Source: Candidatus Heimdallarchaeota archaeon
GTDB lineage: Archaea > Asgardarchaeota > Heimdallarchaeia > JABLTI01
Assembly: GCA_018238155.1 (NCBI GenBank)
Contig: JABCTZ010000019.1
Coordinates: forward strand, 6,832-30,831
Direction: 5' to 3'
Length of the DNA: 24,000 nt
The notes beneath the pieces are model-generated. The model was not told where the DNA came from, made no database searches, and saw only the letters and a list, made by a program, of their open reading frames with translations. Shown here one piece after another: positions 4,278-21,727 of this stretch. The position numbers and the translations under genes were made by a program. Numbering within the stretch: position 1 is the first letter of the stretch; every line of letters starts with the position of its first letter.

Positions 4278-6296
4278 TCAATTTACCTCATCAATCGATA
4301 AAGGCTTAAAAACAAAATTCTCTGAAAAGAACCGTTGAGAGAAAGTTTGTATTTGTTGCCGTTCCTTTTGAGTTAAAACATCTATCCTCTTTGTTTGTTG
4401 TAGCTTCTTCCAAAGAGTGAGTAGTTTGCTATTTGTTGATTGTTCTCTGCCTGTTAATTCTACAGAATGATTTGCCAGTTTATTCACGAGTTCTTTCTGT
4501 TGCTGAAGATAGCTTTCATACGCTCGTTTAAGGTTCGTGTTTTGTCCCGAGGTTAAACTTATTGTTGTATTAAGAGCACGCAAACCGATTTTTCTAATGA
4601 GTGTGTGAACATCTGAGTTGGGTTCAACACAGTAGTACGGGTCATAGCGTTTCCCTCGATTGACTAGAAAGTCGCCAGGACGTATTTCTTCGTTTCGGAT
4701 TGCTTCATGAATCCAGAGTAAAGCAATGATCTTAGCTTGTTCGATAGTATCCAAGTATAAACCGAAGGAATAACCTCGATGACACCAGCCACGAAAACCA
4801 TCCCAAGCAAGAGAAATGACATTATAGATCTCCTTCTTCAAGTATGAAGTAATGATCAAGTTGACACCATTAATAAGAGAATCATAAGCAGAACGAGCAT
4901 AGAAATAGGCAAAGGGAAGGAACCGTTCAAAACGAACCATACGAGAAACGCTACGAGCGGGAGTCAGGAAACCATATTTCTGTGCTTCACGTTTTAATGG
5001 TTCAACCATCAAACTACTAACACCACCTTCATATCTTTGCCACTGCTTGAAATGAAGACTAGGCACACTCCAATAATTGCGAATAGTGTCTTTCATGTTG
5101 TCTAATGCATCGATAAAATAGATTTTCAGGTCAGCATCAACAAATTTTCGTATCTTCGTTTCAATAAGCGTTACTCGTGTTCGAAGGTTTGCTTGAAAAG
5201 TAGGGATATTGAGAATACTGCTAGCAATAAGGAGCTCATTACCACCAACCTCTTTATCCTGTGGTTCGACACTTTCGATAGTATCAATTGGGGAATAGAG
5301 TCTGATTTTATAGTAGAGTTTGAGACCTGTTGCAGGATCAATCTTGTGGAGTAGATTCTCAAGATAATGATAATCATCCCAGTGCTTTGCATAAATATAT
5401 TTTAACTTTCGAAGAGGAAAATAAGTCAGATCAGCAGAATGGACCAGCTCTTCTGTAGTGGTTTTACTGCCAATAAATAAGTTCTCTTCTTTAGTACGAA
5501 GAGTAAAACTGCCAGGTTTAATGATAGAAATACCATACCAATATTTTTCTAGAGAGTCGAGACTATCCTTATTTTGAGGTGGAAGTGTTTCGCCAGTAAG
5601 ATCATGAAAGCTCTTCTGGAGAATGTCAAAATGACTGTCCCAATAGTACACACGATAATCATCAAAGTGCTCATCATATCCAAATTCCATAGGCGAACCA
5701 CAGTGAGGACAGTAAAAAGTAGTAGAACCAATTCTGATGTTCTGCAAATAAAAACTAAATGCACCAATAACTTGCTTGCAACGGTCAATCGGACAACGAA
5801 AGAATTCACCATCTCTATTCTCTCGAATAAAACGAGCCATCGTTCTACTCTTCAGTTGTCCAGGCACTCGACAGTTAAAGAATTCGCATTTGGGAGCATC
5901 ACGAGGAACTGCTTGAAGAGCTACCCGGAGTTTCAAATGAGCAGCCATAAGCGAAGGATTGCTCTTGAAAGCAAGGTCTAATAATGTGCACCTTTGGATA
6001 GCAGATAACCACTGACAAGCACCACAATTAGATCGGTCATCAGTTGGAGCTTCATCTTCTTGAGGTTGTCCTTCTGAACTATAATATAACCGAACAGATC
6101 GTTCAAGGGATTGCTTGTCAGTATAATACTGAATATTTCCTTGGACAGCAAGGGTACGTAATACTTGACAGATTTGTGAATGGCTCCTGTTTAAATTAAT
6201 AGCAAGATCCTTACTTGAAACAGCTTGTGTGGGATCTACGCGGTCATGCACCAAAGATGCAACTAAAGAGCGAAGATCATTTCTACCTGTTCTCAT
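4278..6296 (-). CDS. multidomain protein: wHTH + Cys-rich (Zn-ribbon-like) region + Cas1-like integrase core
   Basis: Numbering follows the 694-aa track ORF.
- wHTH, about aa 45-85: SSKDLAINLNRSHSQICQVLRTLAVQGNIQYY.
- Cys pairs: C113xxC116, C159x4C164, C190x4C195, C218xxC221.
- The C-terminal half matches the Cas1 pattern: RYE445GG...REAQKYGF, then ARSAYDSLINGVNLIITSYL, then GFRGWCH528RGYSFGLYLD538TIE541.
- The H+10 Asp and H+13 acidic spacing is the same as E. coli Cas1 H208/D218/D221 (recalled from memory).
The start is uncertain. ATG at 6296 overlaps the upstream stop by 14 nt. The track start is TTG 6362 / ATG 6359, which would add a hydrophobic 22-aa leader. Confidence 0.65.
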   Translation of the reverse strand: MRTGRNDLRSLVASLVHDRVDPTQAVSSKDLAINLNRSHSQICQVLRTLAVQGNIQYYTDKQSLERSVRLYYSSEGQPQEDEAPTDDRSNCGACQWLSAIQRCTLLDLAFKSNPSLMAAHLKLRVALQAVPRDAPKCEFFNCRVPGQLKSRTMARFIRENRDGEFFRCPIDRCKQVIGAFSFYLQNIRIGSTTFYCPHCGSPMEFGYDEHFDDYRVYYWDSHFDILQKSFHDLTGETLPPQNKDSLDSLEKYWYGISIIKPGSFTLRTKEENLFIGSKTTTEELVHSADLTYFPLRKLKYIYAKHWDDYHYLENLLHKIDPATGLKLYYKIRLYSPIDTIESVEPQDKEVGGNELLIASSILNIPTFQANLRTRVTLIETKIRKFVDADLKIYFIDALDNMKDTIRNYWSVPSLHFKQWQRYEGGVSSLMVEPLKREAQKYGFLTPARSVSRMVRFERFLPFAYFYARSAYDSLINGVNLIITSYLKKEIYNVISLAWDGFRGWCHRGYSFGLYLDTIEQAKIIALLWIHEAIRNEEIRPGDFLVNRGKRYDPYYCVEPNSDVHTLIRKIGLRALNTTISLTSGQNTNLKRAYESYLQQQKELVNKLANHSVELTGREQSTNSKLLTLWKKLQQTKRIDVLTQKERQQIQTFSQRFFSENFVFKPLSIDEVN

Positions 6297-7074
6297 GTAA
6301 CCTCTTCTCCAGTATAAAATCATCAACCATAAGACTATGGGGACCGATAGAAGATTCATCAAGCCAAGGAGGAAGCTCCTGGTAATCGGTAAAGACTGAG
6401 AGAATAATCTCTATCAATTCTTTATCATTCAAATCGTTAGCTCGAGTAATTTCCACTTGATTGATCCGAGAAACAACCTCTTCAGAGAATAGTTGTAAGG
6501 AATTATCATCATAATCATCCGATTCTTCTCTCTTCGAATCCTTCGCATAAGCAATCGTTCGTTTAATCTTTTTGACCCACTCAAACCATTCCTGATACTC
6601 AGCAATTGATTTATCAACGGTTCGTTCCTTCAGTTGAAGGAAGGTCAGAAATTTAGGAACATTCTCAGCAGAAGGAAGAAAACCGAAGGAATGATCGTCA
6701 CTACAACCATCTTCACTATCCAACTTATTAGCTAACCAAGCATTAAAACCGAAAAAACGAAACAAAGCACTAGAAAGAAAAGGATGGTCAAGCTGAAGAT
6801 CAACAACACGACGACGACCTGAACGATAATACGTAATAAGACCAAGATTTGCCAGTGACTTGAGACTAGAACCAATAGCATTAGGGGATCGGTCTAGAAA
6901 CCGACAAAGAAAACCAACAATATTGACAAACTTGCATGTGAAATTCAAGATAAACAATAACTGAAGTGTAAGCAAAACTTCCTCCATAACAGGAGTGAAT
7001 TTAACATTCATATTCAACTCAGCAAAACGATACTCGTCTACCTCTGTTAAGACAAGATTATTCTGAAACTTCAT
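6283..7074 (-). CDS. hypothetical wHTH (MarR-like) protein with acidic C-terminal half
   Basis: wHTH-like IVGFLCRFLDRSPNAIGSSLKSLANLGLITYYRSGRRRVV. ATG at 7074 is preceded by GGAGA 8 nt upstream. The track's longer version starts at TTG 7155. The stop overlaps the start of the Cas1-like gene. Confidence 0.5.
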   Translation of the reverse strand: MKFQNNLVLTEVDEYRFAELNMNVKFTPVMEEVLLTLQLLFILNFTCKFVNIVGFLCRFLDRSPNAIGSSLKSLANLGLITYYRSGRRRVVDLQLDHPFLSSALFRFFGFNAWLANKLDSEDGCSDDHSFGFLPSAENVPKFLTFLQLKERTVDKSIAEYQEWFEWVKKIKRTIAYAKDSKREESDDYDDNSLQLFSEEVVSRINQVEITRANDLNDKELIEIILSVFTDYQELPPWLDESSIGPHSLMVDDFILEKRLHENR

Positions 7075-7156
7075 AAGATTTTTCTCCAACAGAACTCTCC
7101 GACAAAATTGCTTATAAACCTCTAACTCACAAAAAATACCAGAATGCCTTCCCAAT

Positions 7157-7230
7157 ACTCACAAATAATTCAGAAAACCAATGCACTTCTAGGTAAATTT
7201 ACGCAAATTTCCTTCACTCACAAAAAATTC
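7157..7230. repeat. two copies of a 15-nt direct repeat upstream of the wHTH/Cas1-like operon
   Basis: actcacaaataattc (7157-7171) and actcacaaaaaattc (7216-7230). They match at 14 of 15 positions and lie 59 nt apart, in the operon's 5' flank. Confidence 0.3.
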
Positions 7231-7404
7231 TGTAAACTCCTTTAGTCCGCGCTATTCTTACTTCTAAGAATGCCAATTTTCCTCTTCTTATCCCTTCTCA
7301 TGACTAAATAAACCCCTCTTGTACATTAGCGAAAGTTAAACTCTATTCCTATTAACAAAGTACTCAAAGAAGAAAAAAATTGTTGAAATTTAAATTTGCT
7401 TTTT

Positions 7405-7527
7405 TCAAGATTCCAATTCATTCATTCGTTTCTCAAATGCATCAAGTCTTCTCCAAACTTCTTTTATTTGTTCATCAAGCTTTTGCTCTAGTTTGTCAAT
7501 TCTTTTGTTTACGTACATGCTACTCAT
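7405..7527 (-). CDS. possible 40-aa coiled-coil micro-protein
   Basis: Hand translation: MSSMYVNKRIDKLEQKLDEQIKEVWRRLDAFEKRMNELES*. ATG is preceded by GGAAGAGGA. Below the track's size cutoff. No family evidence. Confidence 0.25.
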   Translation of the reverse strand: MSSMYVNKRIDKLEQKLDEQIKEVWRRLDAFEKRMNELES

Positions 7528-7564
7528 TATTATCCTCTTCCTATATTGATTTTCTAATAGTTAC

Positions 7565-7637
7565 TCGCGTTGGAACGTTAAGCAAGACCACTGTAAGTGG
7601 GCTTGTAGTGACCGCGAATCTGCGACTAGCAGAGCTA
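7565..7637. ncRNA. possible structured RNA or terminator element (GC-enriched stem-loops in an AT-rich spacer)
   Basis: - Outer stem: 7565-7569 (tcgcg) pairs with 7613-7617 (cgcga).
- Inner hairpin: 7582-7591 pairs with 7597-7606. It has 9 pairs (one is G-T) plus one A/G mismatch, and loop tgtaa.
- Second hairpin: tagc-aga-gcta at 7627-7637.
Strand unknown. Confidence 0.2.
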
Positions 7638-7688
7638 TTAGGAATTTCTTTCTTCTATGAACACTACTTAAAAAATAGATTAGTATAT

Positions 7689-9263
7689 TTAATGATTTTC
7701 TTGTTTTACTAGGTTACTAAAAGTTTTTAAAAAATACCTTACAACTCCATTCCTAATTAGATTTTTTTCTATTTCTGTTCCAAAATGTTCTTCAATTTGA
7801 GAAAGCAATTTCTTATCATCTGAATCAATTCGAATATAACTTTCATAAAAAATCATTTTTTTTGCAAAGTATTTTAGTTGGGCATTTGGTCTCAAATCAA
7901 GGAAAACTGGTGCTGCTCTAAACCTTCTATATTGTATTCGACGTCCATGATAAAGTAAAAATTCCATCAAAGATTTTTTCTCCTCTGATAAAATTTTTTC
8001 AAGTACTTTTATTGATACTGCACTTTTTCCTGCTTCTATATATTGAACAGACTTAGTACTAATCCCTAGTTTCTGTGCAAACTCAAATTGTGTTGTTTTT
8101 TTTCTATATCCCTTTAGTAATTGTCCTAATCCAACTATTTGTAAATCTGATATTAAACTAAAATCAAAATAGCCGTTTGGTATAGTGTCTTTCTTGAAAT
8201 CTTGAAATTGATAAGAAATTTTGCTTTTTATCTCTCTTCCTTCTTTTAACTTTAAGAATTGCACCCTCTTTTCAGGATGACAACTGTACATTTCACTCTT
8301 GTATATTTGATTATACTTTCTAGGAATGTATATTTGAAATGTATTGTCTGGTCTTTCAGTTAATCTTGACTTGATAGATAATGATACTAAGAATCTAGTG
8401 AACTCATTTACATAAAATTTACTTGCACTTGTGAATGTAATACTGCCACTAGCATAGCTCCCATCAGCATCCATTACACCAGACCAATAATGTGAACGAA
8501 ATGGTTGTTCTTGGAAAAGTAACGGCTCACGTAATTTTTGATATTTCCTTCCACCAATAGGTTGATTTGTAAGAAAAGAAAATAATCGTGCTACCCAGAG
8601 ATTGGTAATAATGAGTTTCGGGCAATTCTCAGTTTGAAGTTGAATTCTCCCTGTTTGCTTGAATAATCGTTCGAACTGTTCCTTTAACTGTCGAATGTTT
8701 TCAATGGAATAATCAACAATATTGAGAACATATTTAGTGATATTCCCATCACCATTGACCATACCACAAAGATAAGCAAGCTCAGTAGTTAAGCTAGTAG
8801 GCATCGCAAAGGTTTCACCTCGAGAGGATTCAAGTATTCGTTCATGGAAATTAAGTTCAAAGTGATCCGGAAAGCAACGATAGAAGGGCAGGGGAACAGC
8901 ACCTCGCTCGAGATACTTTCGAAGGATATCACGCCATTCGAGGATCTTACGATTATCAGATCGGTAAAAATAATCACGCAATTTTTCAGCGACAAGAAGG
9001 TCTTGATTACTTACAAGTTCCTTTTCCTCCTCAGTAAGCTGAACATAGGGTAAACGAGCAAGGATACGGTCAGAATGTTTTTCCCGGACAAAATCCGCCC
9101 TGCGAACAAGGATAGGAAAAAGGTTGAGAATATTGGTACCTTCAAGAATGATTTCTTTTCCTCGATTGCTTTCTAGTAACTCATTGGCGTTTATCCACTG
9201 ATTGACCGGCTTAACCTCTGCATCAAAATAGATCGAATCATTAAGCCAATTGAGCACTGCCAA
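7689..9263 (-). CDS. free-standing double-motif LAGLIDADG endonuclease-like protein fused to a C-terminal XRE-type HTH
   Basis: 524 aa.
- Motif 1: LAYLCGMVNGDGN (nt 8742-8780).
- Motif 2: HYWSGVMDADGSY (nt 8454-8492).
- XRE-like HTH: LGQLLKGYRKKTTQFEFAQKLGISTKSVQYIEAGKSAVSIKVLEKIL (nt about 7992-8138).
- The N-terminal 160 aa are unassigned.
TTG start; there is no in-frame ATG before the domains. Confidence 0.75.
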   Translation of the reverse strand: MAVLNWLNDSIYFDAEVKPVNQWINANELLESNRGKEIILEGTNILNLFPILVRRADFVREKHSDRILARLPYVQLTEEEKELVSNQDLLVAEKLRDYFYRSDNRKILEWRDILRKYLERGAVPLPFYRCFPDHFELNFHERILESSRGETFAMPTSLTTELAYLCGMVNGDGNITKYVLNIVDYSIENIRQLKEQFERLFKQTGRIQLQTENCPKLIITNLWVARLFSFLTNQPIGGRKYQKLREPLLFQEQPFRSHYWSGVMDADGSYASGSITFTSASKFYVNEFTRFLVSLSIKSRLTERPDNTFQIYIPRKYNQIYKSEMYSCHPEKRVQFLKLKEGREIKSKISYQFQDFKKDTIPNGYFDFSLISDLQIVGLGQLLKGYRKKTTQFEFAQKLGISTKSVQYIEAGKSAVSIKVLEKILSEEKKSLMEFLLYHGRRIQYRRFRAAPVFLDLRPNAQLKYFAKKMIFYESYIRIDSDDKKLLSQIEEHFGTEIEKNLIRNGVVRYFLKTFSNLVKQENH

Positions 9264-9341: not shown

Positions 9342-9656
9342 CTATTTCTTTATTATTTTACGCTCTCTATAATTTGATTCAGCAGTAAAATTCTCATCAT
9401 CAGGATAGTATGAAGTTCTTACCCAAATAATCTTAGTTTTAAAATCAGGTTCACATGGAATATGTACAAATCGACTATTTTCTAATTCCCCCCACAACAA
9501 GTACCGTCCATCTTTTGTATCCTCAATAACATCCCATTGTCGAACAATTTCTTCTATTTCATCTGGTGGTATACTTCGCTCTCTCCAACGAAGCTCTCCA
9601 TGTCCTCTCTGAAAGCGAATAATAAATTCTTTGTTTTTTTCTTTAAAGTGGTTCAT
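9342..9656 (-). CDS. DUF4258-like small protein (putative toxin-type)
   Basis: 104 aa. The sequence GHGELRWRERSIPPDEIEEIV...GRYLLWGE...IIWVRTSYYP fits the DUF4258 pattern: H...R.I, a helix, and a beta-rich C-terminus ending in V.T.Y. Confidence 0.55.
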   Translation of the reverse strand: MNHFKEKNKEFIIRFQRGHGELRWRERSIPPDEIEEIVRQWDVIEDTKDGRYLLWGELENSRFVHIPCEPDFKTKIIWVRTSYYPDDENFTAESNYRERKIIKK

Positions 9657-9783: not shown

Positions 9784-10539
9784 GTGAGAAAAATGAAACA
9801 AAGTAATCCCTATTCTAAAGAAGAGAAATTTAGAGAACTAATAAAAGAAGCTTACAGAAAAGTCTTCATCACGGAAAAACAAAAAACCGCACTTTTAGCA
9901 AAATATAATCGAAAGTATGATGGAGACGCTCTGTCCATGCAAGATAGAAATGCTCTGCGAATGCTAAGAAAAACTATAATACAGTATCGAACTTCTGTGT
10001 CTGAGTCTGCAATAGCTGCTCTAAAATTTGAAAGTGTTCTTGAATTACTTTCACTTGTGGATAAAAGCTCTGGTATTTATTGTCATGTTTGTAAAGTGGG
10101 AATATTAGTATCACGAACCGTGAGTTCTTGGATTGTGGGTAAGGATTATGAATTAATTTTAGAACAGAAACCTGCGAAAGTATGTAGTAACAATACTTGT
10201 AAAAGTACTTCATTTAGCTTAGCAGTAGAGAAATATGAGGATGAGCTAATCAATGAAGTTGAAAAGCAATTACGATCGATTAGAATTACAAACACCGAAA
10301 AATTAGATCAAAAGAAATGTCCGCAGTGCCGTTCAGAAACGTTAGAAGCAAACCATACTGGTGATGTATACAAATATCATCAGGGATTATATCATATCAA
10401 GATCAGGGATGTTCCACTAAAAGCATATTGCAACATTTGTCACTATCAAGAAGTAGGAGAAAATATAATAATAGAATTGGAAAAATTAGAAACCCTCTTA
10501 GATACTGAAACACTCGAATTGTTGAAATTGGATGGCTAA
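9784..10539 (+). CDS. protein with helical N-terminus and two tandem YgiT/MqsA-type zinc-finger modules
   Basis: 251 aa.
- Module 1: C90HVC93 ... C134SNNTC139.
- Module 2: C179PQC182 ... YKYHQGLYHIKIRDVPLKAYC216NIC219.
Each has a CxxC, then a beta-hairpin, then a second Cys pair, as in the MqsA N-terminal domain. GTG start in the track; ATG 3 codons later. Confidence 0.55.
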   Translation: MRKMKQSNPYSKEEKFRELIKEAYRKVFITEKQKTALLAKYNRKYDGDALSMQDRNALRMLRKTIIQYRTSVSESAIAALKFESVLELLSLVDKSSGIYCHVCKVGILVSRTVSSWIVGKDYELILEQKPAKVCSNNTCKSTSFSLAVEKYEDELINEVEKQLRSIRITNTEKLDQKKCPQCRSETLEANHTGDVYKYHQGLYHIKIRDVPLKAYCNICHYQEVGENIIIELEKLETLLDTETLELLKLDG

Positions 10540-10589: not shown

Positions 10590-10766
10590 CTATTTTGTCA
10601 ACTCAAAAACTATCTTCTTTGACCCATCAAGATAACACAACACTTCTTCTCCAGGTTCAATATTGAGTGCCTCAACTAATTCTAATGGAATGCTGACCCG
10701 ATGTGTTCCAGAACTGAAAATTATTTTTCTCTTAAAGATAATTTTAGGATCTTTTTCTTCATCCAT
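10590..10766 (-). CDS. AbrB/SpoVT (MazE-like) domain protein, 58 aa
   Basis: Hand translation: MDEEKDPKIIFKRKIIFSSGTHRVSIPLELVEALNIEPGEEVLCYLDGSKKIVFELTK*. The core (R.SIP.E...LNI.PGEEV) is a typical looped-hinge-helix motif. Missing from the ORF track because it is under 60 aa. Divergent from the RAMP operon. Confidence 0.6.
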   Translation of the reverse strand: MDEEKDPKIIFKRKIIFSSGTHRVSIPLELVEALNIEPGEEVLCYLDGSKKIVFELTK

Positions 10767-10890: not shown

Positions 10891-11658
10891 ATGAATGTCT
10901 CTCGAAACTTTAAGCGAATAAAAATAACCGCAAAAACAGCAATAGCAAAACCCGGGAACGGGCAAATTGGGGGAGGAAATACCAAGAACTTATTACTAGT
11001 TCATAACGGACGAGGGTATGGGCGAGAAGGAAAGAGATACCTAGTGAAGGGATTAAGAGGATTGCTAAATCATTCAATGATGGAGCTTGCAAAACAAAAA
11101 GGAATAGAAGTATGTCACTCATCGGACAAAAAAGAAACACAAACAGGAGAAAAATTGCTACCAGACGCATTTCATCCAAACGGCTCGTGCTATCCAGAAG
11201 AGGAGTGCATAAGACACAGATTAATGGGTTCAATGAAAAAACAATCAGTGCTGCGATTTGAACCAGTAGTGATAGTATCGGATAATATAACAGGGGAGTT
11301 CGAAGACGCACAGAAAATACACATAGCAACGGACAAAAGAAATGCGCTAGTGCAAGGAACAAAAAGAAGCATACAAGATTTCGGAGAAAGATACATAGCA
11401 GGAGAATTTACCTATTCGATAGAATTATTGAAAGAAATCTCTCTAGAAGAAATGGGATTCTTACTGAAAAGTATTCTCTACATGCCAGAATTGCGGTGGG
11501 GTGCATCAGGAAATAATGGAGCGGGAAAATTAGAATTAGAAGAAGTAAATCTACAAGAAGTAATGCGCACAAGAACTGTCAAGAAAGGAAAAGTGTCCGA
11601 AAAAGAAAATGAAAAAAATCTTTGGAAACAAATGGAGGAGGGACTTAAAGCTTGGTAA
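10891..11658 (+). CDS. RAMP superfamily protein, Cas7 (Csm3/Cmr4)-like
   Basis: 255 aa.
- YLVKGLRGLLNHS (nt 11038-11067), compare the IPGSSLKGxLR motif.
- CIRHRLMGS (nt 11206-11232), compare C.vC.lFG.
- IHIATDKRNALVQGT...ERYIAGEFTYSIELL, compare the idr.tg.a ... E.i..G..F block.
- Gly-rich loop WGASGNNGAGKLEL (nt 11497-11529). Confidence 0.65.
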   Translation: MNVSRNFKRIKITAKTAIAKPGNGQIGGGNTKNLLLVHNGRGYGREGKRYLVKGLRGLLNHSMMELAKQKGIEVCHSSDKKETQTGEKLLPDAFHPNGSCYPEEECIRHRLMGSMKKQSVLRFEPVVIVSDNITGEFEDAQKIHIATDKRNALVQGTKRSIQDFGERYIAGEFTYSIELLKEISLEEMGFLLKSILYMPELRWGASGNNGAGKLELEEVNLQEVMRTRTVKKGKVSEKENEKNLWKQMEEGLKAW

Positions 11659-12635
11659 TAAGGGAAATATATACACTAGAAGGAGAATTGCTGTCACCAA
11701 TTATTGTTTCTTCATCATTGATAAAGAAAGGAAGAATTTGGATTAGAATAGTAAGGGAGTTAGGAACTGAAGAAAAACCACAAAAGAGCTTCACTGCGAA
11801 ACTAATAAAGGGGGAACGAAAAGCACCAGACCATGTGAACGCATACAGAGGATTTGTGAGAATAACTACAGTTGATTCAAACACATCTCGAGCGAAGAAA
11901 AACATTGATCTCTATCTTAACAAAGATTTCCTTGGAAGACGTGTAAACGAAGGATTTGGAAAAGTCAAGTGGTTGAATTATAAAATAGAAAATTACGTAA
12001 GAAATGCAACTGAAAAAAAACAAAAGAAATTCAGAATACGAAAAGGACTAGGACCAAATTATCCAAAAGAATTGCAAAGATTGCTTAGAGCTCTAATGTT
12101 ACATGATTTTGTGGAAACAGAAAAACATCCAAGTAAGATATTCAAAGAAATTTCAATTAAGGATGAGGAAATAAGAGAAGCTTGCTTAAAACATCATAAT
12201 GTAGGATACTGCAAGAATATACTACTCCCACTGGTCAGGTATTATGACCATTTAGCTGCATACATGAACAGAAAAAGCGTACACATAAGAAACTGCAGAT
12301 ATGATTATGAGAATGGAAAAATAGATTTTGAAAAATTAGCTAATGACATAGAAGAAAGACAACAATCTGCCTATAAATTATATAATTTCATCTATTACTC
12401 AAAAGAATTAAGTAGAACAGTGGAAGCAATGAAATTTGGAAAAACATCTCTGCGAGATCATTTGTTGTTAATGGCTAATCTAGCTATACATGGCTACTGC
12501 AATAGGTGGTTAATAATGGAAAATGGAAAAATTGAACTCGAAAAGAAAATCTCATCATCGGTAACAAGAAAGGATGAACTTGAATGTGCTAAAGATGTTG
12601 AGATGCATCTGTTATCTAGTATGAGCAATGCTTAA
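11652..12635 (+). CDS. two-part protein: short RAMP-like N-terminus with Gly-rich loop, plus a helical C-terminus with possible HD-type motifs
   Basis: 327 aa. TTG start overlaps the upstream stop by 7 nt, and there is no in-frame ATG for 148 codons.
- FLGRRVNEGFGKVKW (nt 11928-11972) resembles the terminal G-rich loop of Cas5/Cas6-type RAMPs.
- ALMLHDFVETEKH (HD at nt 12102-12107), KHHN and RYYDHLAAYMNRK (nt 12240-12275) loosely resemble Cas10/Cas3-type HD motifs.
The functional call is weak. Confidence 0.4.
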   Translation: MVIREIYTLEGELLSPIIVSSSLIKKGRIWIRIVRELGTEEKPQKSFTAKLIKGERKAPDHVNAYRGFVRITTVDSNTSRAKKNIDLYLNKDFLGRRVNEGFGKVKWLNYKIENYVRNATEKKQKKFRIRKGLGPNYPKELQRLLRALMLHDFVETEKHPSKIFKEISIKDEEIREACLKHHNVGYCKNILLPLVRYYDHLAAYMNRKSVHIRNCRYDYENGKIDFEKLANDIEERQQSAYKLYNFIYYSKELSRTVEAMKFGKTSLRDHLLLMANLAIHGYCNRWLIMENGKIELEKKISSSVTRKDELECAKDVEMHLLSSMSNA

Positions 12636-12723: not shown

Positions 12724-12868
12724 TGGCGCCCCGAACGGGATTCGAACCCGTTTATGGTGCTTGATTTTTTTTCAAGCTTGTCCATCGGGCTCTGCAGCCA
12801 AAAGCTTGCAGTGCACATTTCTTGGCTTTGACAGCCGAAGATGATGAGCCGTACTACACTATCAGGGC
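12724..12868 (-). tRNA. tRNA-Asp: tRNA-Asp (GUC) with two introns and genomically encoded CCA
   Basis: Read on the minus strand.
- Acceptor stem: GCCCTGA pairs with TCGGGGC, followed by discriminator G and CCA.
- D region: AGTGTAGTACGGCTCATCAT.
- T arm: ACGGG-TTCGAAT-CCCGT.
- Anticodon: GTC at 12830-12832, in a spliced loop CTGTCA/C.
- Intron 1: 39 nt (12790-12828) at 37/38, with a canonical helix-bulge(3)-helix(4 bp)-bulge(3)-helix.
- Intron 2: about 26-28 nt (roughly 12753-12778) between the anticodon and T arms, containing a 6-bp hairpin GCTTGA-A7-TCAAGC. Confidence 0.85.
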
Positions 12869-12941: not shown

Positions 12942-14258
12942 TTAAAATATCTTAATTTCTACTATGTGTTCTATTGGATATTTATCTGTGTAGTTTCCCG
13001 GGTCGATAATATATTCTACTCCTGGGAACCATACTAATTCTGACCAGTAATTCCCTTGATCGGTTTCTTCATCAAACCATTTTGTAAATCCTACAAAATC
13101 AGAACAATTACCTTCTACCCTTGCTTGTGAGTGGATTTCTGTGATGTTATTATAGTTATTGTCTATGAAATTATTATTCCATATTGTTGCATTTACTGCT
13201 TCCGTTTCTATTCCGTATTGTTCATTGTGCTCTAATATGTTGAAATTGATAGCTGTAATATTTGAACATCGTAAAGACATTCCTATAGTATTATCAAAGC
13301 AACTATTATTTGTTATAGTACAGAGATCATTCATTAACATTGCAATACCATATTCTCTATTAGATTTGAAAGCATTGCTTTGACAACAGCTGTTTTTGCT
13401 TCTAACCATCAACAACCCAAAATTGCTTCCCGTACAATTGTTTCCAATTATTGTACAGTTGTTTGAATAATATACACCTATCCCCCGAAAAGAATTATTA
13501 GTTATATTATTGTTTAGTAACCTAATATTTACGCAATCCAAAATACCGATACCATAGTTCCCATTTTCTATGGTATTATTTTCCACAATTACATTTGAAG
13601 CTGTAAGAATGTCGATATCCTCTGAACCAGTATTTGTGAAATAATTATTCTGAACAGTTACATTATCTACCTGACTTAAGGTTATTCCGTAATCACAACT
13701 TTGGAAAATATTTCCTTCTACTCTCGAATTATTACTCATATATAATTCAACCCCTCCATCATTATAATTTCTGTAAAATCTATTGCTTGTAATATTTACA
13801 GTTCCAAAACGTACCTCAATTCCTTGCCGGTAATTTCTATCGAAAGAATTATTTGTAATTAGGCATTTCTCGAGATAACTGATAGAGATTCCAATATCTC
13901 CTCCAATTAAATTATTTTTAATAACTATAGTTCCATCTGCAGTGATATTTGATAGTTTTATTCCACATGACAGCCTACAATTTTGAATGATAAAATGCTT
14001 TGTTACTCCACTAATTTTGATACCATATAGGACTCCTTGCAAGGTATATCCCTCTATAATGTATGGTTCTTCCTTTGTGCCTTTCCCTGGAAAGTTATAT
14101 TTCCAGTAGAAATCTGAATCTCTCTTAATCTCTATTATCTCGATATCTTTTCTTAGATTAATCCATCTACCCAAGAAAATTCCTGAAATTGTTACAGAAC
14201 AAACTAATACAACAATTAGAATTACTTTTACTGATTTTTTTAAGTCTCTGAATCCCAC
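12942..14258 (-). CDS. membrane-anchored right-handed parallel beta-helix (PbH1/NosD-like) surface protein, paralog 1
   Basis: 438 aa with a GTG start. Has an N-terminal TM anchor and FPGKGTKEEPYIIEGY (typical PbH1 entry). Repeated N-rich, roughly 22-aa turns (NNxIxxNxxGI). About 16 N-x-S/T sequons by my count. Conserved tail IDPGNYTDKYPIE. Confidence 0.8.
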   Translation of the reverse strand: MGFRDLKKSVKVILIVVLVCSVTISGIFLGRWINLRKDIEIIEIKRDSDFYWKYNFPGKGTKEEPYIIEGYTLQGVLYGIKISGVTKHFIIQNCRLSCGIKLSNITADGTIVIKNNLIGGDIGISISYLEKCLITNNSFDRNYRQGIEVRFGTVNITSNRFYRNYNDGGVELYMSNNSRVEGNIFQSCDYGITLSQVDNVTVQNNYFTNTGSEDIDILTASNVIVENNTIENGNYGIGILDCVNIRLLNNNITNNSFRGIGVYYSNNCTIIGNNCTGSNFGLLMVRSKNSCCQSNAFKSNREYGIAMLMNDLCTITNNSCFDNTIGMSLRCSNITAINFNILEHNEQYGIETEAVNATIWNNNFIDNNYNNITEIHSQARVEGNCSDFVGFTKWFDEETDQGNYWSELVWFPGVEYIIDPGNYTDKYPIEHIVEIKIF

Positions 14259-14507
14259 TCTGAATTCCTCTTCGATTGTTTGGTAATTGTAGTATTTATA
14301 CCTTTCAGTTTTGAAAAATAATGATTGTATAAATCATTTGACATATTTCTTTATGAAAACAGTTTTCTTTACATTATATTTTGATCATTACTATTTTGAT
14401 TTAAGAAATCTTCTTATTTTTGTAATCGATTGTTTATGTACCTTTTTTCGGGGGGATGATAATTTGAATAAAAGGTTTTCACTGTTTTTTGTTTTCTTTT
14501 TCTTGCT

Positions 14508-15821
14508 TTATATTTTGATTGTCACTGGTTCTTCTAGGGGATAGTTATCTGTGTAATTTCCTGGATCGATAATATATTCCATTCCTGAGAACCATACTAT
14601 ATCCGACCAGTAATTCCCTTGATCGTTTTCTTCATCAAACCATTGTGGGTATCCAACATAATCAGTACAGTTTCCCGCTACTTTAGCTTGTGCTTGTATT
14701 GATGGTATGTTATTGTAGTTATTATCTATAAAATTATTATTCCAGATAGTTGTGTTTACTCCTTGTGTCACCATTCCATATTCCAAATTATGTTCGAATA
14801 CATTGAAGCTAATTCTTGGTATCCTTGAACAATATAGTTCCATCCCAAGTGTATTGTTATAGTATGAATTATTATTTATCTCTGTAGAGTAACTTAACCA
14901 AACATAAAGTCCACTAACATTATTCGAAATAAGATTATTGTTGGAAAAGAGGCTATCTGAAATTCCATAAGCAGAAATTCCGTAATAAACATTTTTAGAA
15001 CAATTATTTTCCTTAATTAAGCCATTGTTTGTGTAACTAATTAATAACCCAGAACCATTCTCTGTTAAATTATTTCCCACAATATTGACATTTTGACTAT
15101 AAACAATAGCAACACCTAAACCACAATTTATTACTGTGTTATTATCAAATTGGATATTCTTTATATATTGCATTTGTGCACCCCATCTTGTACAGTTTAT
15201 GAGATAATTTTTCTCTATAGATATTAGTTCAGAATCCAAAATTGTAAATCCATCTTCGCAAGAATCGAAGGTATTTTTCTTTATGCTTGTATTATAATTA
15301 TCTAGTACATGTATTCCATCTCCTTGATTTTTGAGAAAAGTATTTGAAGTAATTTCCAAGCTACCAGTAGATGTTGCTTCTATTCCTCTGCCATTTTTGA
15401 AGAATTTATTACCACTTATTAGGCAATTGCTACTTATTCTTATAATAACCCCATAGTCATTACTTTGTATAGTATTGTTTACTATTTTTGCAATACCATT
15501 TGATAATCCTCTTAAATCAATACCCTTATTGGAGTTTCGTAAAACACAATTTTGAATGACAAAATGTTTTGTTATATCATAGATTTTGATATTGTGAAAC
15601 CTATTACCAGATAATTCATAGCCATCAATAATAAACGGATCTTCTTCTGTTCCTTTTCCAGGAAAGTGATATTTTCGAGAAAAATCCTTATCCTCATATA
15701 TTTCTATCACATTTATTGGTCGAAACCATACACCTAAGAAAATTGCAGTTCCAGTTATTGTTACAACTAATCCAATTATTACTATTGTAAGAACTTTGTT
15801 GTTTATTTTCTTCAATTCCAA
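14508..15821 (-). CDS. membrane-anchored parallel beta-helix surface protein, paralog 2
   Basis: 437 aa with a TTG start. Same architecture as paralog 1. Tail: QGNYWSDIVWFSGMEYIIDPGNYTDNYPLEEPVTIKI. Confidence 0.8.
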   Translation of the reverse strand: MELKKINNKVLTIVIIGLVVTITGTAIFLGVWFRPINVIEIYEDKDFSRKYHFPGKGTEEDPFIIDGYELSGNRFHNIKIYDITKHFVIQNCVLRNSNKGIDLRGLSNGIAKIVNNTIQSNDYGVIIRISSNCLISGNKFFKNGRGIEATSTGSLEITSNTFLKNQGDGIHVLDNYNTSIKKNTFDSCEDGFTILDSELISIEKNYLINCTRWGAQMQYIKNIQFDNNTVINCGLGVAIVYSQNVNIVGNNLTENGSGLLISYTNNGLIKENNCSKNVYYGISAYGISDSLFSNNNLISNNVSGLYVWLSYSTEINNNSYYNNTLGMELYCSRIPRISFNVFEHNLEYGMVTQGVNTTIWNNNFIDNNYNNIPSIQAQAKVAGNCTDYVGYPQWFDEENDQGNYWSDIVWFSGMEYIIDPGNYTDNYPLEEPVTIKI

Positions 15822-16360
15822 TTTCTCACCATTTTGTTATATGTAGCACTATAAATACCATTTCAGATTTTACATTGAGTAATTCTAATGTTTTTTTTGT
15901 TTCTTATAGGTTAAGTGAATTTCTGTAAATTCTCTCTACATTTCTAGGATTTGTTTTAAGATGCCTTTTTCCTTTCTTTTCCAACTGAATTTTCTTAATC
16001 ATTAATTCATTCTAGTCTTAGTGAAAGGGAAATTTGAGTGCCTGCTAGAAAATATTATATTAAGCAATTAATTACTCACATTAAAGATTTTTCTTTTGAC
16101 AGTGATCTTGATTCAATATTTGCTACTTCTCGTGCTCTTTAATCCTTAGAGCGGTATAGAGAGGACATTCCTGAGTTGCTTTCTCTTTCAATGAAGCTTT
16201 TGAAGGATTTTTATCTCCAAGAGAATGAAATTACTTTTCCAGTCAATCTTAGAATGACTGATGAAAGATAAATAGCTATTTCTGAAGTTTACTGGAATGC
16301 TCTCCATGCCATACATTTTCACGATTGATCTGTTCCCTCTCATATTGCTTTTTTCTTGCT

Positions 16361-17707
16361 TTAGAGATTGATTGTCACTGGTTCTTCTAGTGGGTAGCTA
16401 TCAGTATAATTTCCTGGGTCGATAGTATACTCCACTCCTGTATACCATACTAACTCCGACCAGTAATTTCCCCTTCCCATTACTTCATTATGCCACTTTG
16501 TGTGTTCTTCATAATATGTTCCATCAAATGAGCAATTTCCATTACTTCTTGCTTGTGAATGTATTGTTGTAATGTTGATGTAATTATTGTCTATGAAATT
16601 ATTATTATAAATGGTAGTATTTACTCCTTGAGTTACTATACCATATTCTAAATTGCGTTGAATAATATTACAATTAATTTGAGTAATATTTGAACAAAAT
16701 AATTCCATTCCTAGACCATTATCAACAAAGCTATTATTGTTTATTGAAGAGATATCACTTGCCCACATTGATATTCCACTTTTATTATTTCCATTAAAGA
16801 AATTGTTACAACAATTACTATTGGTTAACCAATATATCCTGATACCAAAATCACTATTTCCTGATCCATTATTTCCCGTAATTAAGCATTTGTTTATGGT
16901 TTCTAAATAAAAACCGTTACCTCTATTGTCCACTGAAGTATTATTTACTAAGTCTATATTTTGACTTTGACATATTCCGAATCCTAAACTACAATTTGTT
17001 GCTGAATTATTACCTATAATTATATTCATTACTTCTTCTGCATAAAATCCTAATATGCAGTTTGTAAAATTGTTTCTTTTTGTTAGAATATTTTCCGAAC
17101 GATAAATTACTAATCCACTATTAAAAGAGTCAAAGGTATTGTCTTCTATTCTTGTATTATTGTTATCCGAAAAATTCATCCCTTCAATCCAAGCAATGTG
17201 GTCATACTTGTTATTGATAAGGATATTTGATTGTATTGTATAACTACCTGTTCCCGCTTCTATTGCTTGATGGTTATTGATGAAAGTGTTATTACTGATG
17301 ATACAATTATTATATCCTCTAATAATAATTCCAAAATCATTATCTCTTATAGTGTTGCTTAGTATTTGTGCAACTCCATAAGTTAAGTTAACTAAATCCA
17401 TACCTTTGCTGGATTTTTCCAAAATACAATTTTGAATGATGAAGTATTTTGTTATGCCTACAATTCTGATGTTATGATGAGAATTTCCTGATAACTCGTA
17501 ACCGTCAATAATATAGGGGTCATCCTCTGTTCCACTGCCTGGAAAATGATATTTTTGTGAGAAGTCCTTATCATCAAAAATTTCTATTTGTTCTATTGTT
17601 CTAAACCGCCAGCCAAAGAAAATCGCTGTCCCAATTGTTGACACGACTATCGCTATGATTATTACTGCTTGAACTTCACTACTTAGTTTTCTAAATCTCA
17701 CTTTCAA
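16361..17707 (-). CDS. membrane-anchored parallel beta-helix surface protein, paralog 3
   Basis: 448 aa with a TTG start. Same architecture as paralogs 1 and 2. Tail: RGNYWSELVWYTGVEYTIDPGNYTDSYPLEEPVTINL. Confidence 0.8.
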   Translation of the reverse strand: MKVRFRKLSSEVQAVIIIAIVVSTIGTAIFFGWRFRTIEQIEIFDDKDFSQKYHFPGSGTEDDPYIIDGYELSGNSHHNIRIVGITKYFIIQNCILEKSSKGMDLVNLTYGVAQILSNTIRDNDFGIIIRGYNNCIISNNTFINNHQAIEAGTGSYTIQSNILINNKYDHIAWIEGMNFSDNNNTRIEDNTFDSFNSGLVIYRSENILTKRNNFTNCILGFYAEEVMNIIIGNNSATNCSLGFGICQSQNIDLVNNTSVDNRGNGFYLETINKCLITGNNGSGNSDFGIRIYWLTNSNCCNNFFNGNNKSGISMWASDISSINNNSFVDNGLGMELFCSNITQINCNIIQRNLEYGIVTQGVNTTIYNNNFIDNNYINITTIHSQARSNGNCSFDGTYYEEHTKWHNEVMGRGNYWSELVWYTGVEYTIDPGNYTDSYPLEEPVTINL

Positions 17708-18964: not shown

Positions 18965-21727
18965 ATGTCAAAAGAACAATCTTCCTTGGATTCATTTTTT
19001 GGTGTAAAGGCCAAAAAAGAAGCGAAAGTGGAAAAGAAGAGAAAGAAATTTTCCGAAAAAGAAAAGAAACAACCTAACAGTTCTACAAGAAATAATCAGG
19101 GACCTGCTTCAAAAAAAGTTATTGTTGATTTAGAGGAAGAGGATGATATCTCTGAATTTGAGAAAAAGGGTGTTGATGTGGAGGTTATCCATGAGGGTGC
19201 CCCTGTAGAATACTGTCCGAAAAATTCTCCCCCTAGTTGCCTTTTCCAGTCTATTTATGAAGGAAAAAGCGCCAAAGGATTTCTCTCCTTACTTGACGAG
19301 CAATCCAATCGATTAATTGGCTATTACGATAGTACTGGTCATAAACCCTATTTGCTTACAGATTTAACCGTGGAACAACTACAACAAATTTCTTCTGTTA
19401 AGAATTTTAGGAAGATTATCGCTTACAAGAAAGTGCAATTGAAAAATCTCCTTACTGATAAAGATGTAAATATGACTAAAATAGTCGTTACAGATCCTTT
19501 AGCCATTGGTGGTAGATATGATAGTCTCCGAGAAAAATTACCCGCTGCCTGGGAAGCAAATATTCGTTATCACAAAAATTACTTGTATGATTTGAAGCTT
19601 TACCCGGGAATGTTTTATCAATTAAAAGATGGTCATCTGAAACCTGCTGTTCAGAAGCTAGACAAAAAAGTAGAAGCTCAAATTAAAGAATTATTCAAAG
19701 ATTCTCCCAAAGAAGTACAGGATCTTATTCCTATTTATTTGCCCTTGTTTTTGACTCGAGTCCCCCATATCAAGCGCGCAGCAATTGATATTGAAGTTTT
19801 CACTAAAAACATGGATCGAATTGCTGACCCTGCAAAAGCTCTTGAAAAAGTGATTTCAATTTCATTAGTAGGTAATGATGGAGCTAAATTTGTCCTTGTT
19901 TTACAACGTGATGACGTTCCTCGTGGCACTCGCCCAAAGGAGCTTGCTGCTGATGTTAAAGTAGAATTCTTTGACGATGAAAAAGAGCTTCTCTTGAAAA
20001 CTTTTGCATTAATGAAAGATTATCCAGTTATTATAACCTTCAATGGTGATAATTTTGATTTACCATATCTTCGGAATCGAGCGAATCGTTTGAAAATAGA
20101 CTCTCGAGATAATCCTTTAATTGAAAACAGAGATTACTATTCCATTCGGAATGCCATTCATTTTGATGCTTACAAATTCTTCAATCAAGCGGCAATCAAA
20201 GTTTATGCTTATGGTGGTAAGTATAATGTTAGTTCTTTAAATGCTATCACTTCTGCTTTGCTTAAAGATCACAAAGTAGAATTAGATAAAGACATAGGTC
20301 TGTTAAATTGCTATGAACTTGCTTACTATAATTATTGGGATAGTAAAATCACTCTGGAATTGACTACTTTTAATGACAACCTTACTATGCGATTAATAAT
20401 TATGTTAATGCGTATAACTGGTATGCCCTTTGAGGATATAACAAGACAAGCAGTTTCTACTTGGATACGAAGTTGGTTATTCTCAGAGCATCGTCATAGA
20501 AATTATCTTATTCCTCGTCCTGAAGAGATTATTGGCTCCCGAGGGGATTCAACTACAAGCGCGATGATCAAAGGAAAGAAATACAAAGGAGCCATTGTTG
20601 TTTCTCCTTCTCCAGGTATTCATTTTGATGTTACCGTTTTAGATTTTGCAAGCCTCTATCCAAGCATAATTAAAATTTGGAATCTCTCTTATGAGACAAT
20701 GAATTGTACGCACGAAAGTTGCCAAAAGAATAAGAAAATGATACCTGACACTGATCATTGGGTCTGTACTAAAAATAAAGGGCTTATGTCTATTTTAATA
20801 GGCTTTATTAGAGATATTCGAGTTGATTGGTTTAAACCCAAAACCAAAGATAAATCACTTGATCAAAACACCAGAGACTTTTACAATGTTATTCAAGCTG
20901 CGTTAAAAGTCGTTATTAATGCTTCTTATGGTGTTTTTGGTGCTGCTCATTTTCCATTCTATTGTCCGCCTTTAGCTGAAGCAACGACAGCAATAGGTAG
21001 AAAAGCTATTACAGATACGATTGAGAAATGTGAAGAAATGGGCATTCCAGTTATCTATGGTGATACTGATTCGGTTTTTCTAAAAAGCCCCACAAAAGCT
21101 CAAATAAAAGAACTCATCAAATGGAGTGATGATCATCTAAAAATTGACCTTGATGTCGAAAAAAACTATCGATACTTGGCATTATCTGATAGAAAGAAAA
21201 ACTATCTTGGTGTGTATCACGATGGAAAAGTTGATGTCAAAGGATTATTGGGCAAAAAACGAAATACTCCTACATTCCTCAAAGATGTGTTTAATGATGT
21301 CGTTCAAATTTTAAGTGAAATAAAAGTTGAAGAAGATATCGTGGATGCGCGAAAGAAAATTGAAGAGCGAGTACAACAATGTTATAAAGACCTCAAAAAC
21401 AGAAAATTACCTATTGAAGATCTTGTATTTCGAGTACAGTTAAACAAAGCTCTCGCACAATATATTAAAACTACACCTCAACATGTTAAAGCCGCTCGAA
21501 TATTGTTGGAAACAACTGGTAAAGAGTTGGGTGCAGGTGATTTGATATCTTTTGTGAAAACATCAAGTGGAATTGGTGTTAAACCCTTAGAACTAGCAAA
21601 AATTTCTGATATCGATATCGATAAATATTTAGCTCAAATGGAATCAACTCTAAAACAAGTTTTGGAACCAGTTGGTGTTTCCTTTGAAAAAATAATTGGT
21701 ATTAGGTCTCTTGATGATTTCTTTTGA
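18965..21727 (+). CDS. polB: family-B DNA polymerase
   Basis: 920 aa.
- ExoI: AIDIEVF.
- ExoII: FNGDNFDLPYL.
- ExoIII: YNYWDSKITLEL.
- PolA: LDFASLYPSII.
- PolB: KVVINASYGVFG.
- PolC: YGDTDS.
ATG is preceded by GAGG. Confidence 0.95.
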   Translation: MSKEQSSLDSFFGVKAKKEAKVEKKRKKFSEKEKKQPNSSTRNNQGPASKKVIVDLEEEDDISEFEKKGVDVEVIHEGAPVEYCPKNSPPSCLFQSIYEGKSAKGFLSLLDEQSNRLIGYYDSTGHKPYLLTDLTVEQLQQISSVKNFRKIIAYKKVQLKNLLTDKDVNMTKIVVTDPLAIGGRYDSLREKLPAAWEANIRYHKNYLYDLKLYPGMFYQLKDGHLKPAVQKLDKKVEAQIKELFKDSPKEVQDLIPIYLPLFLTRVPHIKRAAIDIEVFTKNMDRIADPAKALEKVISISLVGNDGAKFVLVLQRDDVPRGTRPKELAADVKVEFFDDEKELLLKTFALMKDYPVIITFNGDNFDLPYLRNRANRLKIDSRDNPLIENRDYYSIRNAIHFDAYKFFNQAAIKVYAYGGKYNVSSLNAITSALLKDHKVELDKDIGLLNCYELAYYNYWDSKITLELTTFNDNLTMRLIIMLMRITGMPFEDITRQAVSTWIRSWLFSEHRHRNYLIPRPEEIIGSRGDSTTSAMIKGKKYKGAIVVSPSPGIHFDVTVLDFASLYPSIIKIWNLSYETMNCTHESCQKNKKMIPDTDHWVCTKNKGLMSILIGFIRDIRVDWFKPKTKDKSLDQNTRDFYNVIQAALKVVINASYGVFGAAHFPFYCPPLAEATTAIGRKAITDTIEKCEEMGIPVIYGDTDSVFLKSPTKAQIKELIKWSDDHLKIDLDVEKNYRYLALSDRKKNYLGVYHDGKVDVKGLLGKKRNTPTFLKDVFNDVVQILSEIKVEEDIVDARKKIEERVQQCYKDLKNRKLPIEDLVFRVQLNKALAQYIKTTPQHVKAARILLETTGKELGAGDLISFVKTSSGIGVKPLELAKISDIDIDKYLAQMESTLKQVLEPVGVSFEKIIGIRSLDDFF

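Follow-up and report, generated by a model that had tools for sequence, protein, structure and literature searches.

Here, we analysed a stretch of 24,000 nucleotides (nt), hereafter called the window, from a Candidatus Heimdallarchaeota archaeon (assembly GCA_018238155.1, contig JABCTZ010000019.1), with a focus on two overlapping genes, ORF1 and ORF2, which a preliminary description made from the letters alone had read as an orphan pair of RAMP proteins. Our results suggest that the pair is the effector of an ARAMP locus, an array-less, CRISPR-like system described as type III-derived; we give this reading, together with the mechanism proposed below, a probability of about 60%. ORF1 (10891-11658, plus strand, ATG start) encodes a Cas7-like RAMP of 255 amino acids (aa), the presumed backbone subunit, and ORF2 (11652-12635, plus strand, TTG start) a protein of 327 aa with a predicted RAMP domain and a predicted HD-type phosphohydrolase domain. 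As already noted in the preliminary description and seen again in the open reading frame (ORF) listing and the sequence, both genes lie on the plus strand and overlap by 7 nt (11652-11658), the TTG of ORF2 being located inside ...GCT TGG TAA.

Proposed assignment to ARAMP

ARAMP was described by Makarova et al. (2020, CRISPR J 3:156). As summarised in two reviews (PMC8730458, PMC12669027), the term covers array-less, type III-derived systems of Asgard archaea whose Cas5 and Cas7 are diverged and which carry a distinct Cas1 as well as PD-(D/E)XK nucleases. We assign the locus to ARAMP because its Asgard host, the lack of an array, a diverged Cas7 accompanied by a second RAMP, a distinct Cas1 and a PD-(D/E)XK nuclease match these descriptions. 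In both cases the Cas7-type RAMP is extremely diverged and nearest to type III, and the diverged Cas5 of ARAMP may have its counterpart in the second RAMP; the distinct Cas1 of most ARAMP loci finds its counterpart in a divergent Cas1-like gene at 4278-6362, and PD-(D/E)XK domains occur in both. The kind of system is hence not novel, as it was already described in 2020. What the ARAMP reviews do not mention, and what we found here, is the predicted fusion of the second RAMP to an HD domain, a LAGLIDADG protein with a helix-turn-helix (HTH) domain, an AbrB/MazE neighbour, a fusion of a helicase to Cas1, a structured RNA of 75 nt and one locus with arrays. PD-(D/E)XK, HD and LAGLIDADG are the nuclease domains seen at the locus; no HNH domain was seen there. 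All comparisons are based on 44 sequences, i.e. the window and 43 fetched loci (given L numbers where they need to be told apart), some of which cover the same contig twice.

The Cas7-like protein and the RAMP-HD protein

Based on short motifs, ORF1 had been likened to the Csm3/Cmr4-type Cas7 proteins and ORF2 to a RAMP with a possible HD domain, and all of these motifs were found in the translations: KGLRGLL, C-IRHR-LMGS, HIATDKRNALVQGT, GASGNNGAGK and GGGNTKNLLLVHNG in ORF1, and LGRRVNEGFGKVKW, LHD, KHH and YDHLAAYMNR in ORF2. ORF1 matched the Pfam RAMPs model slightly below its gathering score (E 6.4e-4) and the PADLOC Csm3 model with E 2.7e-5, while a profile built from 31 homologues (A1) retrieved from the PDB, with E 1.5e-4, the Cas7 chain of type VII (8yhd and related entries) and, with E 1e-3, a Csm3. 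The AlphaFold2 (AF2) model of ORF1 (predicted local distance difference test, pLDDT, 84; predicted template modelling score, pTM, 0.83) had type VII Cas7 as its top PDB match in Foldseek (E 4.8e-9, template modelling score, TM, 0.6-0.67), followed by type IV Csf2, Csm3, I-D Cas7 and Cas7-11. Profiles and predicted structure agree in supporting a RAMP fold and the Cas7 assignment made earlier. The ORF1 family keeps C75, C100, C106 and H109, a CCCH zinc-finger signature, which we take to be similar to the zinc fingers of Cas7-11-type Cas7 domains.

The N-terminal loop of the ORF1 family, where Csm3 and Cmr4 carry their cleaving Asp, is variable, modelled with low confidence and devoid of a conserved Asp, in line with the earlier remark that a catalytic Asp is missing. 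Type VII Cas7 is described as catalytically inactive (PMC13069675). Because of the Cas7 matches, the lack of a conserved Asp and the inactivity of type VII Cas7, we consider ORF1 to be a Cas7-type backbone without cutting activity: judged by sequence and model, it is predicted to be a Cas7-fold RAMP that lacks the target-cleaving Asp and stands nearest to the inactive type VII Cas7, and it probably acts as a non-cutting backbone protein.

When ORF2 was used as query, no match was obtained in Pfam, NCBIfam or PADLOC, and profile searches of the PDB gave nothing significant. Its AF2 model (pLDDT 82) comprises a beta-rich N-terminal domain (residues ~1-115), which carries the G-rich loop LGRRVNEGFGKVKW, and a helical domain (~135-298). 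The top PDB matches of the model in Foldseek were all RAMPs, namely type VII Cas7, Csm3 and Cmr1 (E 7e-4 to 1e-2, TM 0.24/0.36). Searching 1.84 billion representatives with an ORF2 profile yielded 131 relatives, and the Pfam HD model was matched by 12 of the 26 aligned family members (best E 7.5e-5, 23.4 bits at a gathering score of 22). Across the extended family, H151, D152, D199, H270 and G103, the glycine of the G-loop, are invariant and H159 and H182 nearly so, the conserved residues of the HD domain being H151-D152, H159, H181-H182, D199 and H270. ORF2 is therefore predicted to join a RAMP domain to an HD domain with a full set of His/Asp metal ligands, and the HD domain is probably an active nuclease; the cautious wording of the preliminary description, RAMP-like plus possible HD, gains from the RAMP-only matches of the N-terminal domain, the Pfam HD matches of the family members and the invariant ligands.

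One of the relatives retrieved with the ORF2 profile, P0135 (536 aa), has a Cas7-like RAMP at residues 82-239 and, behind it, an ORF2-like region at 275-516. As a natural fusion of both genes, it supports a physical partnership of ORF1 and ORF2.

Conservation of the pair

Each of the two ORFs has 50-60 close homologues, nearly all of them from Heimdallarchaeota and other Asgard metagenome-assembled genomes (MAGs); the named hosts are Heimdallarchaeota, Gerd-, Thor- and Borrarchaeota and 'Asgard group' MAGs. One homologue labelled 'Zixibacteria' and one labelled 'Bathyarchaeia' look like binning errors. Identities among the homologues range from 36% to 91%, so they are not assembly duplicates of one sequence. 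ORF1 and ORF2 are adjacent in about 36 of the 44 sequences, and their overlap is kept across two Asgard phyla, Heimdall- and Borrarchaeota; the homologue neighbourhoods, to which the preliminary description had pointed as a check, show the pair to be conserved as a unit.

These data also bear on the idea of decay, raised in the preliminary description for types III and IV, by which the pair would be a functionless leftover of a CRISPR-Cas locus of type III, IV or VII. Such a decay would account for the lack of a large subunit, Cas6, Cas11 and an array in the 24 kb and for the weak matches to Cas families. However, the ratio of nonsynonymous to synonymous substitution rates (dN/dS) of the pair between orthologues is 0.09-0.21 with saturated dS (ORF1: 0.09-0.10), which indicates that the pair is not a decaying remnant. 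Furthermore, about 36 loci from two Asgard phyla have kept intact frames together with the overlap, the HD ligands, the G-loops and the zinc-finger residues are invariant, and a fused variant exists. With purifying selection, retained catalytic residues and wide conservation standing against it, we regard decay as hardly credible.

Linked genes, copy number and mobility

In loci of the Heimdall type, the genes follow the order PD-(D/E)XK nuclease, 231-aa protein, ~690-aa zinc-ribbon protein, ~255-aa protein, LAGLIDADG-HTH protein, AbrB/MazE and the divergently oriented RAMP pair, with two winged-helix proteins among the genes linked to the pair. Cas1-like and Cas4-like genes had been noted 4-8 kb away, and we located them on the minus strand at 4278-6362 and 2825-3562, respectively. 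As both are linked to the pair, it is not an orphan: it belongs to a recurrent multi-gene locus.

The Cas1-like integrase (694 aa), which is highly divergent in sequence, contains an N-terminal winged helix and several zinc ribbons, and its catalytic-type residues E444, H527 and D537/E540 are conserved in the pattern E...H-x9-D-x2-E. Since the protein of the window has no direct match in Pfam, its homology was established via Borrarchaeal proteins of ~1330 aa: hhalign aligned the Heimdall orthologues to the C-terminal ~600 residues of these proteins (probability 98.1, E 1.2e-13, 539 columns), and a Borrarchaeal protein matched Pfam Cas_Cas1 at model positions 7-264 of 283 (E 3.9e-9, 36.5 bits at a gathering score of 22.3). 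In a profile search of the PDB, the H...D..E block was aligned to the Cas4/Cas1 fusion 7mi4 with E 0.19, which is not significant alone, and profile searches of a large protein database returned close relatives only. The Cas1-like gene occurs in 10 Heimdall-type and 7 Borrarchaeal loci. A 732-aa zinc-ribbon neighbour in L024 was also tested as a Cas1 homologue and rejected.

Proteins of 1323-1363 aa that join a helicase to Cas1 were observed in Borrarchaeum (L026, L029, L031, L034, L036, L038 and L039, e.g. at 4099-8190 of L039). They consist of an N-terminal DEAD-box SF2 helicase, winged-HTH and zinc-ribbon linkers and the C-terminal Cas1, are encoded directly upstream of the pair and were found in at least seven copies in two Borrarchaeum MAGs, frequently with LRR/TPR proteins as neighbours.

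The remaining genes of the Cas1-like operon are also located on the minus strand. The Cas4-like PD-(D/E)XK nuclease (245 aa; Pfam PDDEXK_1, E 3.2e-9; PADLOC Cas4, E 1.9e-3) closes the operon in 7 loci. A conserved 231-aa protein (3569-4264) without a family match has orthologues in L001, L003, L005, L014, L016, L020 and L045. The first gene of the operon (6283-7155) encodes a conserved protein of ~250-260 aa, winged-helix-like by eye, whose real start is probably M28; it likewise matched no family and has positional orthologues in L001, L003, L016, L020, L045 and L049. The LAGLIDADG-HTH protein (524 aa; 7689-9263, minus strand) was recognised by Pfam LAGLIDADG_3 (E 3.4e-8) and HTH_3 (E 4e-6). 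Its two LAGLIDADG motifs read ..NGDG.. and ..DADGS.., and an XRE-type HTH forms its C-terminal part; G171-D172-G173 and D265-A266-D267-G268 are invariant. The protein is encoded beside MazE and the pair in 13 loci of the Heimdall type.

Diverged copies of the pair accumulate within genomes: at least six were counted in the Heimdall MAG CSMAG_2352 and at least ten in Borrarchaeum weybense, and the copies of one genome are only 38-60% identical. Paralogous copies differ in their downstream neighbours, which are all housekeeping genes (tRNA-Asp, GluRS, EF-2, TopoVI-B, TFS or Snf7/CDC48). A Cas1 homologue with conserved catalytic-type residues, such copy numbers and such neighbours are what one would expect if the locus were, or derived from, a mobile element in which the Cas1-like protein acts as integrase or transposase and the Cas7/RAMP-HD proteins pick or prepare the insertion site, loosely like in CRISPR-associated transposons or casposons; some Asgard Cas1 homologues may indeed belong to novel mobile elements (PMC8730458). 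However, the neighbours of orthologous copies stay the same from one species to another. Synteny between the window and L001 extends over ~16 kb at ~72% identity and takes in the tRNA and NosD genes on the flank, and one other copy retains its Snf7/CDC48 neighbours in five assemblies. Searches for terminal inverted repeats and for a duplicated tRNA end found none, relatives in IMG/VR are absent, the intragenomic divergence gives no sign of recent transposition, and the PolB gene of the window lies 12 kb off, beyond chromosomal genes. The lack of terminal repeats, the kept synteny and the absence of IMG/VR relatives argue against a recently mobile element, and we consider a mobile origin or nature of the locus unlikely.

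With casposons and Cas1-solo genes the locus shares a Cas1-family integrase outside a CRISPR-Cas adaptation module, accompanied by a Cas4-like nuclease. It differs from them by the absence of terminal inverted repeats, of an adjacent PolB inside the element and of signs of recent mobility, and its Cas1 is far more divergent and extended by winged-HTH and zinc-ribbon or helicase parts. Membership in the casposons was rejected, as convincing terminal inverted repeats are missing and PolB (18965-21727) is split off by tRNA and NosD genes in conserved chromosomal synteny. Aloposons (PMC8813620) were rejected as an explanation of the multi-copy loci, since their defining giant Otus/Ephialtes genes are absent here, and so was a viral origin, given the IMG/VR result.

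On one contig of 170 kb (JAUWKS010000002.1), we observed four diverged trios of MazE, RAMP and RAMP/HD genes (L019, L021, L024 and L010), only one of which stands beside a Cas1-like operon, while the others abut housekeeping genes (GluRS, PfkB kinase). This suggests the trio as the minimal unit.

CRISPR arrays and a conserved structured RNA

According to the preliminary description, no array, large subunit or Cas6 was in view. Our scans of the window agree: no CRISPR array was detected in the 24 kb, and no Pfam match to Cas10, Cas6 or beta-CASP was obtained among the ORFs of at least 90 aa and the 58-aa AbrB/MazE ORF. Within +-10 kb, 43 of the 44 loci were free of arrays. Both earlier characterisations, a CRISPR-derived module working without a local array and a scattered 'cas-like without CRISPR' gene set, fit these results.

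The exception, L005 (contig JACCLD010000003.1), holds two genuine CRISPR arrays within an ARAMP locus, at 4547-4890 and 6743-7240. The repeat of 37 nt, GTTGCAAAAGTAAAAGCTCAATTAAGAGTATTGAAAT, is read on the minus strand and ends in ATTGAAAT; array 1 contains 5 partly degenerate copies and array 2 contains 7. The arrays lie between the Cas1-like/Cas4-like genes and the LAGLIDADG-MazE-RAMP genes, array 2 being ~535 nt past the LAGLIDADG gene, the position held elsewhere by the 75-nt motif described below. Three small genes, one with a faint HEPN match, were seen between the arrays; no family was found for the small proteins encoded there and in L003. The L005 repeat was not found in the window, and the leader region of L005 had no match in Rfam.

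At 7564-7639 on the plus strand, immediately beyond the LAGLIDADG gene at its 3' end, the window contains a GC-rich, conserved motif of ~75 nt, which covariance models recognise as a structured RNA and which we regard as a candidate ARAMP-associated non-coding RNA (ncRNA). It forms three helices around an invariant CACUGUAAGUG hairpin and is 88-97% identical to its counterparts in L020 and L001, compared to ~70% in the flanks. The covariance models identified 17 instances (among them L001 4125-4199, L020 5836-5910, L019 8686-8758 on the minus strand, L021, L024, L006 and L044-L055) of two subtypes: one adjoins the LAGLIDADG gene, and the other, type B, follows the MazE stop at a distance of 25-45 nt and shares the strand of MazE. 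Of the cells predicted to pair, 94.5% are paired, with compensatory changes in 8 pairs, while slid controls reach 24-51%; the many G-U pairs fix the strand of the motif. It has no variable segment and no match to any Rfam family. A metagenome-wide pattern scan gave 12 matches, of which 8 stood beside ARAMP genes; 3 of the other 4 were located at a locus edge. The covariance search gave no instance, however, in many ARAMP loci, among them all of the Borrarchaeal loci.

Some further observations concern the surroundings of this RNA. Most copies of the motif are directly preceded by a short conserved CAATAGT-like motif. Just beyond the RNA, an unlisted ORF of 40 aa (7405-7527, minus strand; MSSMYVNKRIDKLEQKLDEQIKEVWRRLDAFEKRMNELES) appears coiled-coil-like by eye, and L001 has a gene of 34 aa there (3963-4067). 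A second ncRNA in the intergenic region between the Borrarchaeal helicase and RAMP genes was ruled out, as this region contains a conserved TATA-like promoter only; such a box also precedes ORF1 (TTATATA, at a distance of ~50 nt).

Both the 75-nt RNA at ARAMP loci and the single array-bearing locus L005 seem to be new. A tentative idea, which we hold to be improbable at present, is that the 75-nt RNA is the dedicated partner of the Cas7-like/RAMP-HD complex, so that ARAMP would represent a ribonucleoprotein nuclease that is derived from CRISPR and has a fixed, non-spacer RNA as its core. If true, L005 and the loci with the motif would capture a stage at which a guide array is being replaced by one structured RNA or is emerging from it, and the divergent Cas1/Cas4 pair would be kept for some other DNA transaction.

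The AbrB/MazE gene and the flanks of the locus

An AbrB-type gene had been placed 124 nt upstream of ORF1 in divergent orientation, and this is what we found: the SpoVT-AbrB (AbrB/MazE) protein of 58 aa is encoded at 10590-10766 on the minus strand, 124 nt before ORF1, and matches Pfam MazE_antitoxin with E 2.8e-5 and 24.4 bits, slightly below the cut-off of 24.7 bits. In 15 of the fetched loci, its gene directly adjoins the pair in divergent orientation. Compared to its orthologue in L001 (7152-7328), the protein is 98% identical with a dN/dS of 0.016. The proteins encoded next to it are 59-74% identical between the window and L001, which places the constraint on AbrB/MazE far above that on the effector genes. 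AbrB/MazE is probably a regulator of the pair.

A MazE homologue at this position, with such a low dN/dS, also brings to mind a toxin-antitoxin or abortive infection system, in which ORF1 partners the toxin, the ORF2 HD nuclease, and this toxin is held in check by AbrB/MazE, by the small RNA after MazE or by both. The type B motif just behind the MazE stop on the same strand and the multi-copy, patchy distribution of the loci are consistent with it. However, MazE is divergent from the pair and not co-transcribed with it, Borrarchaeal loci are without MazE, and SpoVT/AbrB domains are common as plain transcription factors; moreover, the Cas7 fold implies an RNA-scaffolded assembly beyond the needs of a simple toxin. 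We therefore see a toxin-antitoxin function as quite unlikely.

Two genes that occur only in the window and in L001 are located between the LAGLIDADG gene and MazE: a divergent pair of a DUF4258-like gene (104 aa; 9342-9656, minus strand) and a zinc-ribbon/YokU-like gene (251 aa; 9784-10539, plus strand). This pair looks like a toxin-antitoxin insertion and not like a part of the ARAMP system.

On the other side of the locus lies tRNA-Asp(GTC) (12724-12868, minus strand) with an intron of 63 nt after position 37/38. It was found by ARAGORN in intron mode and missed by ARAGORN with default settings and by Rfam at the gathering threshold; its 3' end is 88 nt past the ORF2 stop, as the preliminary description had it. 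Behind it, three tandem NosD/right-handed beta-helix paralogues of ~440 aa each (12942-17707, minus strand) are the source of the long direct repeats in the window, and a tandem NosD expansion was observed in L001 as well.

Proposed mechanism

For the ARAMP effector, which is the reading we prefer, we propose that several ORF1 subunits would polymerise along an RNA, as Cas7 backbones do, with the RAMP domain of ORF2 capping the filament in the manner of Cas5. The HD domain of ORF2 would be the nuclease acting on the bound or nearby nucleic acid, a role which we assign to it because a backbone without the cleaving Asp cannot cut. Transcription would be controlled by AbrB/MazE from the divergent promoter region of 124 nt, and candidates for the RNA partner are CRISPR RNAs supplied in trans or the 75-nt RNA at 7564-7639. 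Most likely, the system serves to ward off foreign nucleic acid or takes part in conflicts among genetic elements.

Several points weigh against this interpretation. The assignment to ARAMP is based on the descriptions given in the two reviews, and RNA binding, complex formation and activity of the pair are predictions from sequences and models. The RAMP fold match of ORF2 is weak (TM 0.24/0.36, E ~1e-3); its N-terminal domain is possibly Cas5-like, with a Cas7-like or Cas6-like nature as alternatives. The ORF2 protein of the window itself has no significant HD match, so that the HD call derives from family members and conserved residues, and the motif order HD..H..HH..D..H without a conserved upstream His is atypical. 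Finally, no Cas1-like gene was found within 10 kb in L019, L021, L024, L017, L027 and L028, which means that the link to Cas1 is not obligatory.

Relation to other CRISPR-derived systems

Compared by description, HRAMP (Makarova et al. 2019, FEMS Microbiol Lett 366:fnz079) resembles the locus as an array-less class 1 derivative with diverged Cas5/Cas7 and nucleases in one archaeal lineage (PMC8730458). It differs in its host lineage, and the distinct Cas1 is what most ARAMPs add to the components shared with HRAMP (PMC8730458).

Type VII, which comprises the beta-CASP nuclease Cas14, Cas7 and Cas5 (8yhd, 8yhe, 8z4l, 9j9e), provides the best structure and profile match of ORF1. A further likeness is that in type VII an inactive Cas7 leaves the cutting to a separate nuclease (PMC13069675). 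The locus differs from it in the absence of Cas14/beta-CASP and of an array here and in the fusion of HD to a RAMP, and the identity is only 14-16%. Membership in type VII was rejected, since neither a beta-lactamase/beta-CASP match in the window or the inspected neighbourhoods nor an array was found.

Two other memberships were tested and rejected. For type III, a Cas10 or Cas6 match (ORFs of at least 90 aa), a conserved Asp in ORF1 and an array are missing. For type IV, no match to Csf1, DinG or CysH was obtained, and Csf2 appeared only as a secondary fold match of ORF1. Types IV-C, III-G and III-H resemble the locus in being reduced derivatives of type III, where cutting is predicted to fall to an HD nuclease instead of Cas7. 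They carry no adaptation genes themselves, and III-G has no array of its own; their HD domain resides on a Cas10-like or Csf1 large subunit, whereas here it is found on a small RAMP with no large subunit seen. Unlike in these types, a Cas1-like gene is present at the ARAMP locus.

Implications

ARAMP is among the most divergent relatives of CRISPR, has been described computationally and resides in the archaeal lineage closest to eukaryotes, where it combines a Cas7/Cas5-type scaffold with a Cas1-type integrase in the absence of an array. The probably active HD domain on the second RAMP, as judged from its residues, together with a probably inactive Cas7 predicts the source of cleavage in such a system. 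Experimental handles are provided by the RAMP-HD architecture, the helicase-Cas1 fusion and the RNA motif, a concrete candidate ligand in a subset of loci. Should the 75-nt RNA prove to be the partner of the complex, how a CRISPR derivative without an array finds its target could be tested directly.

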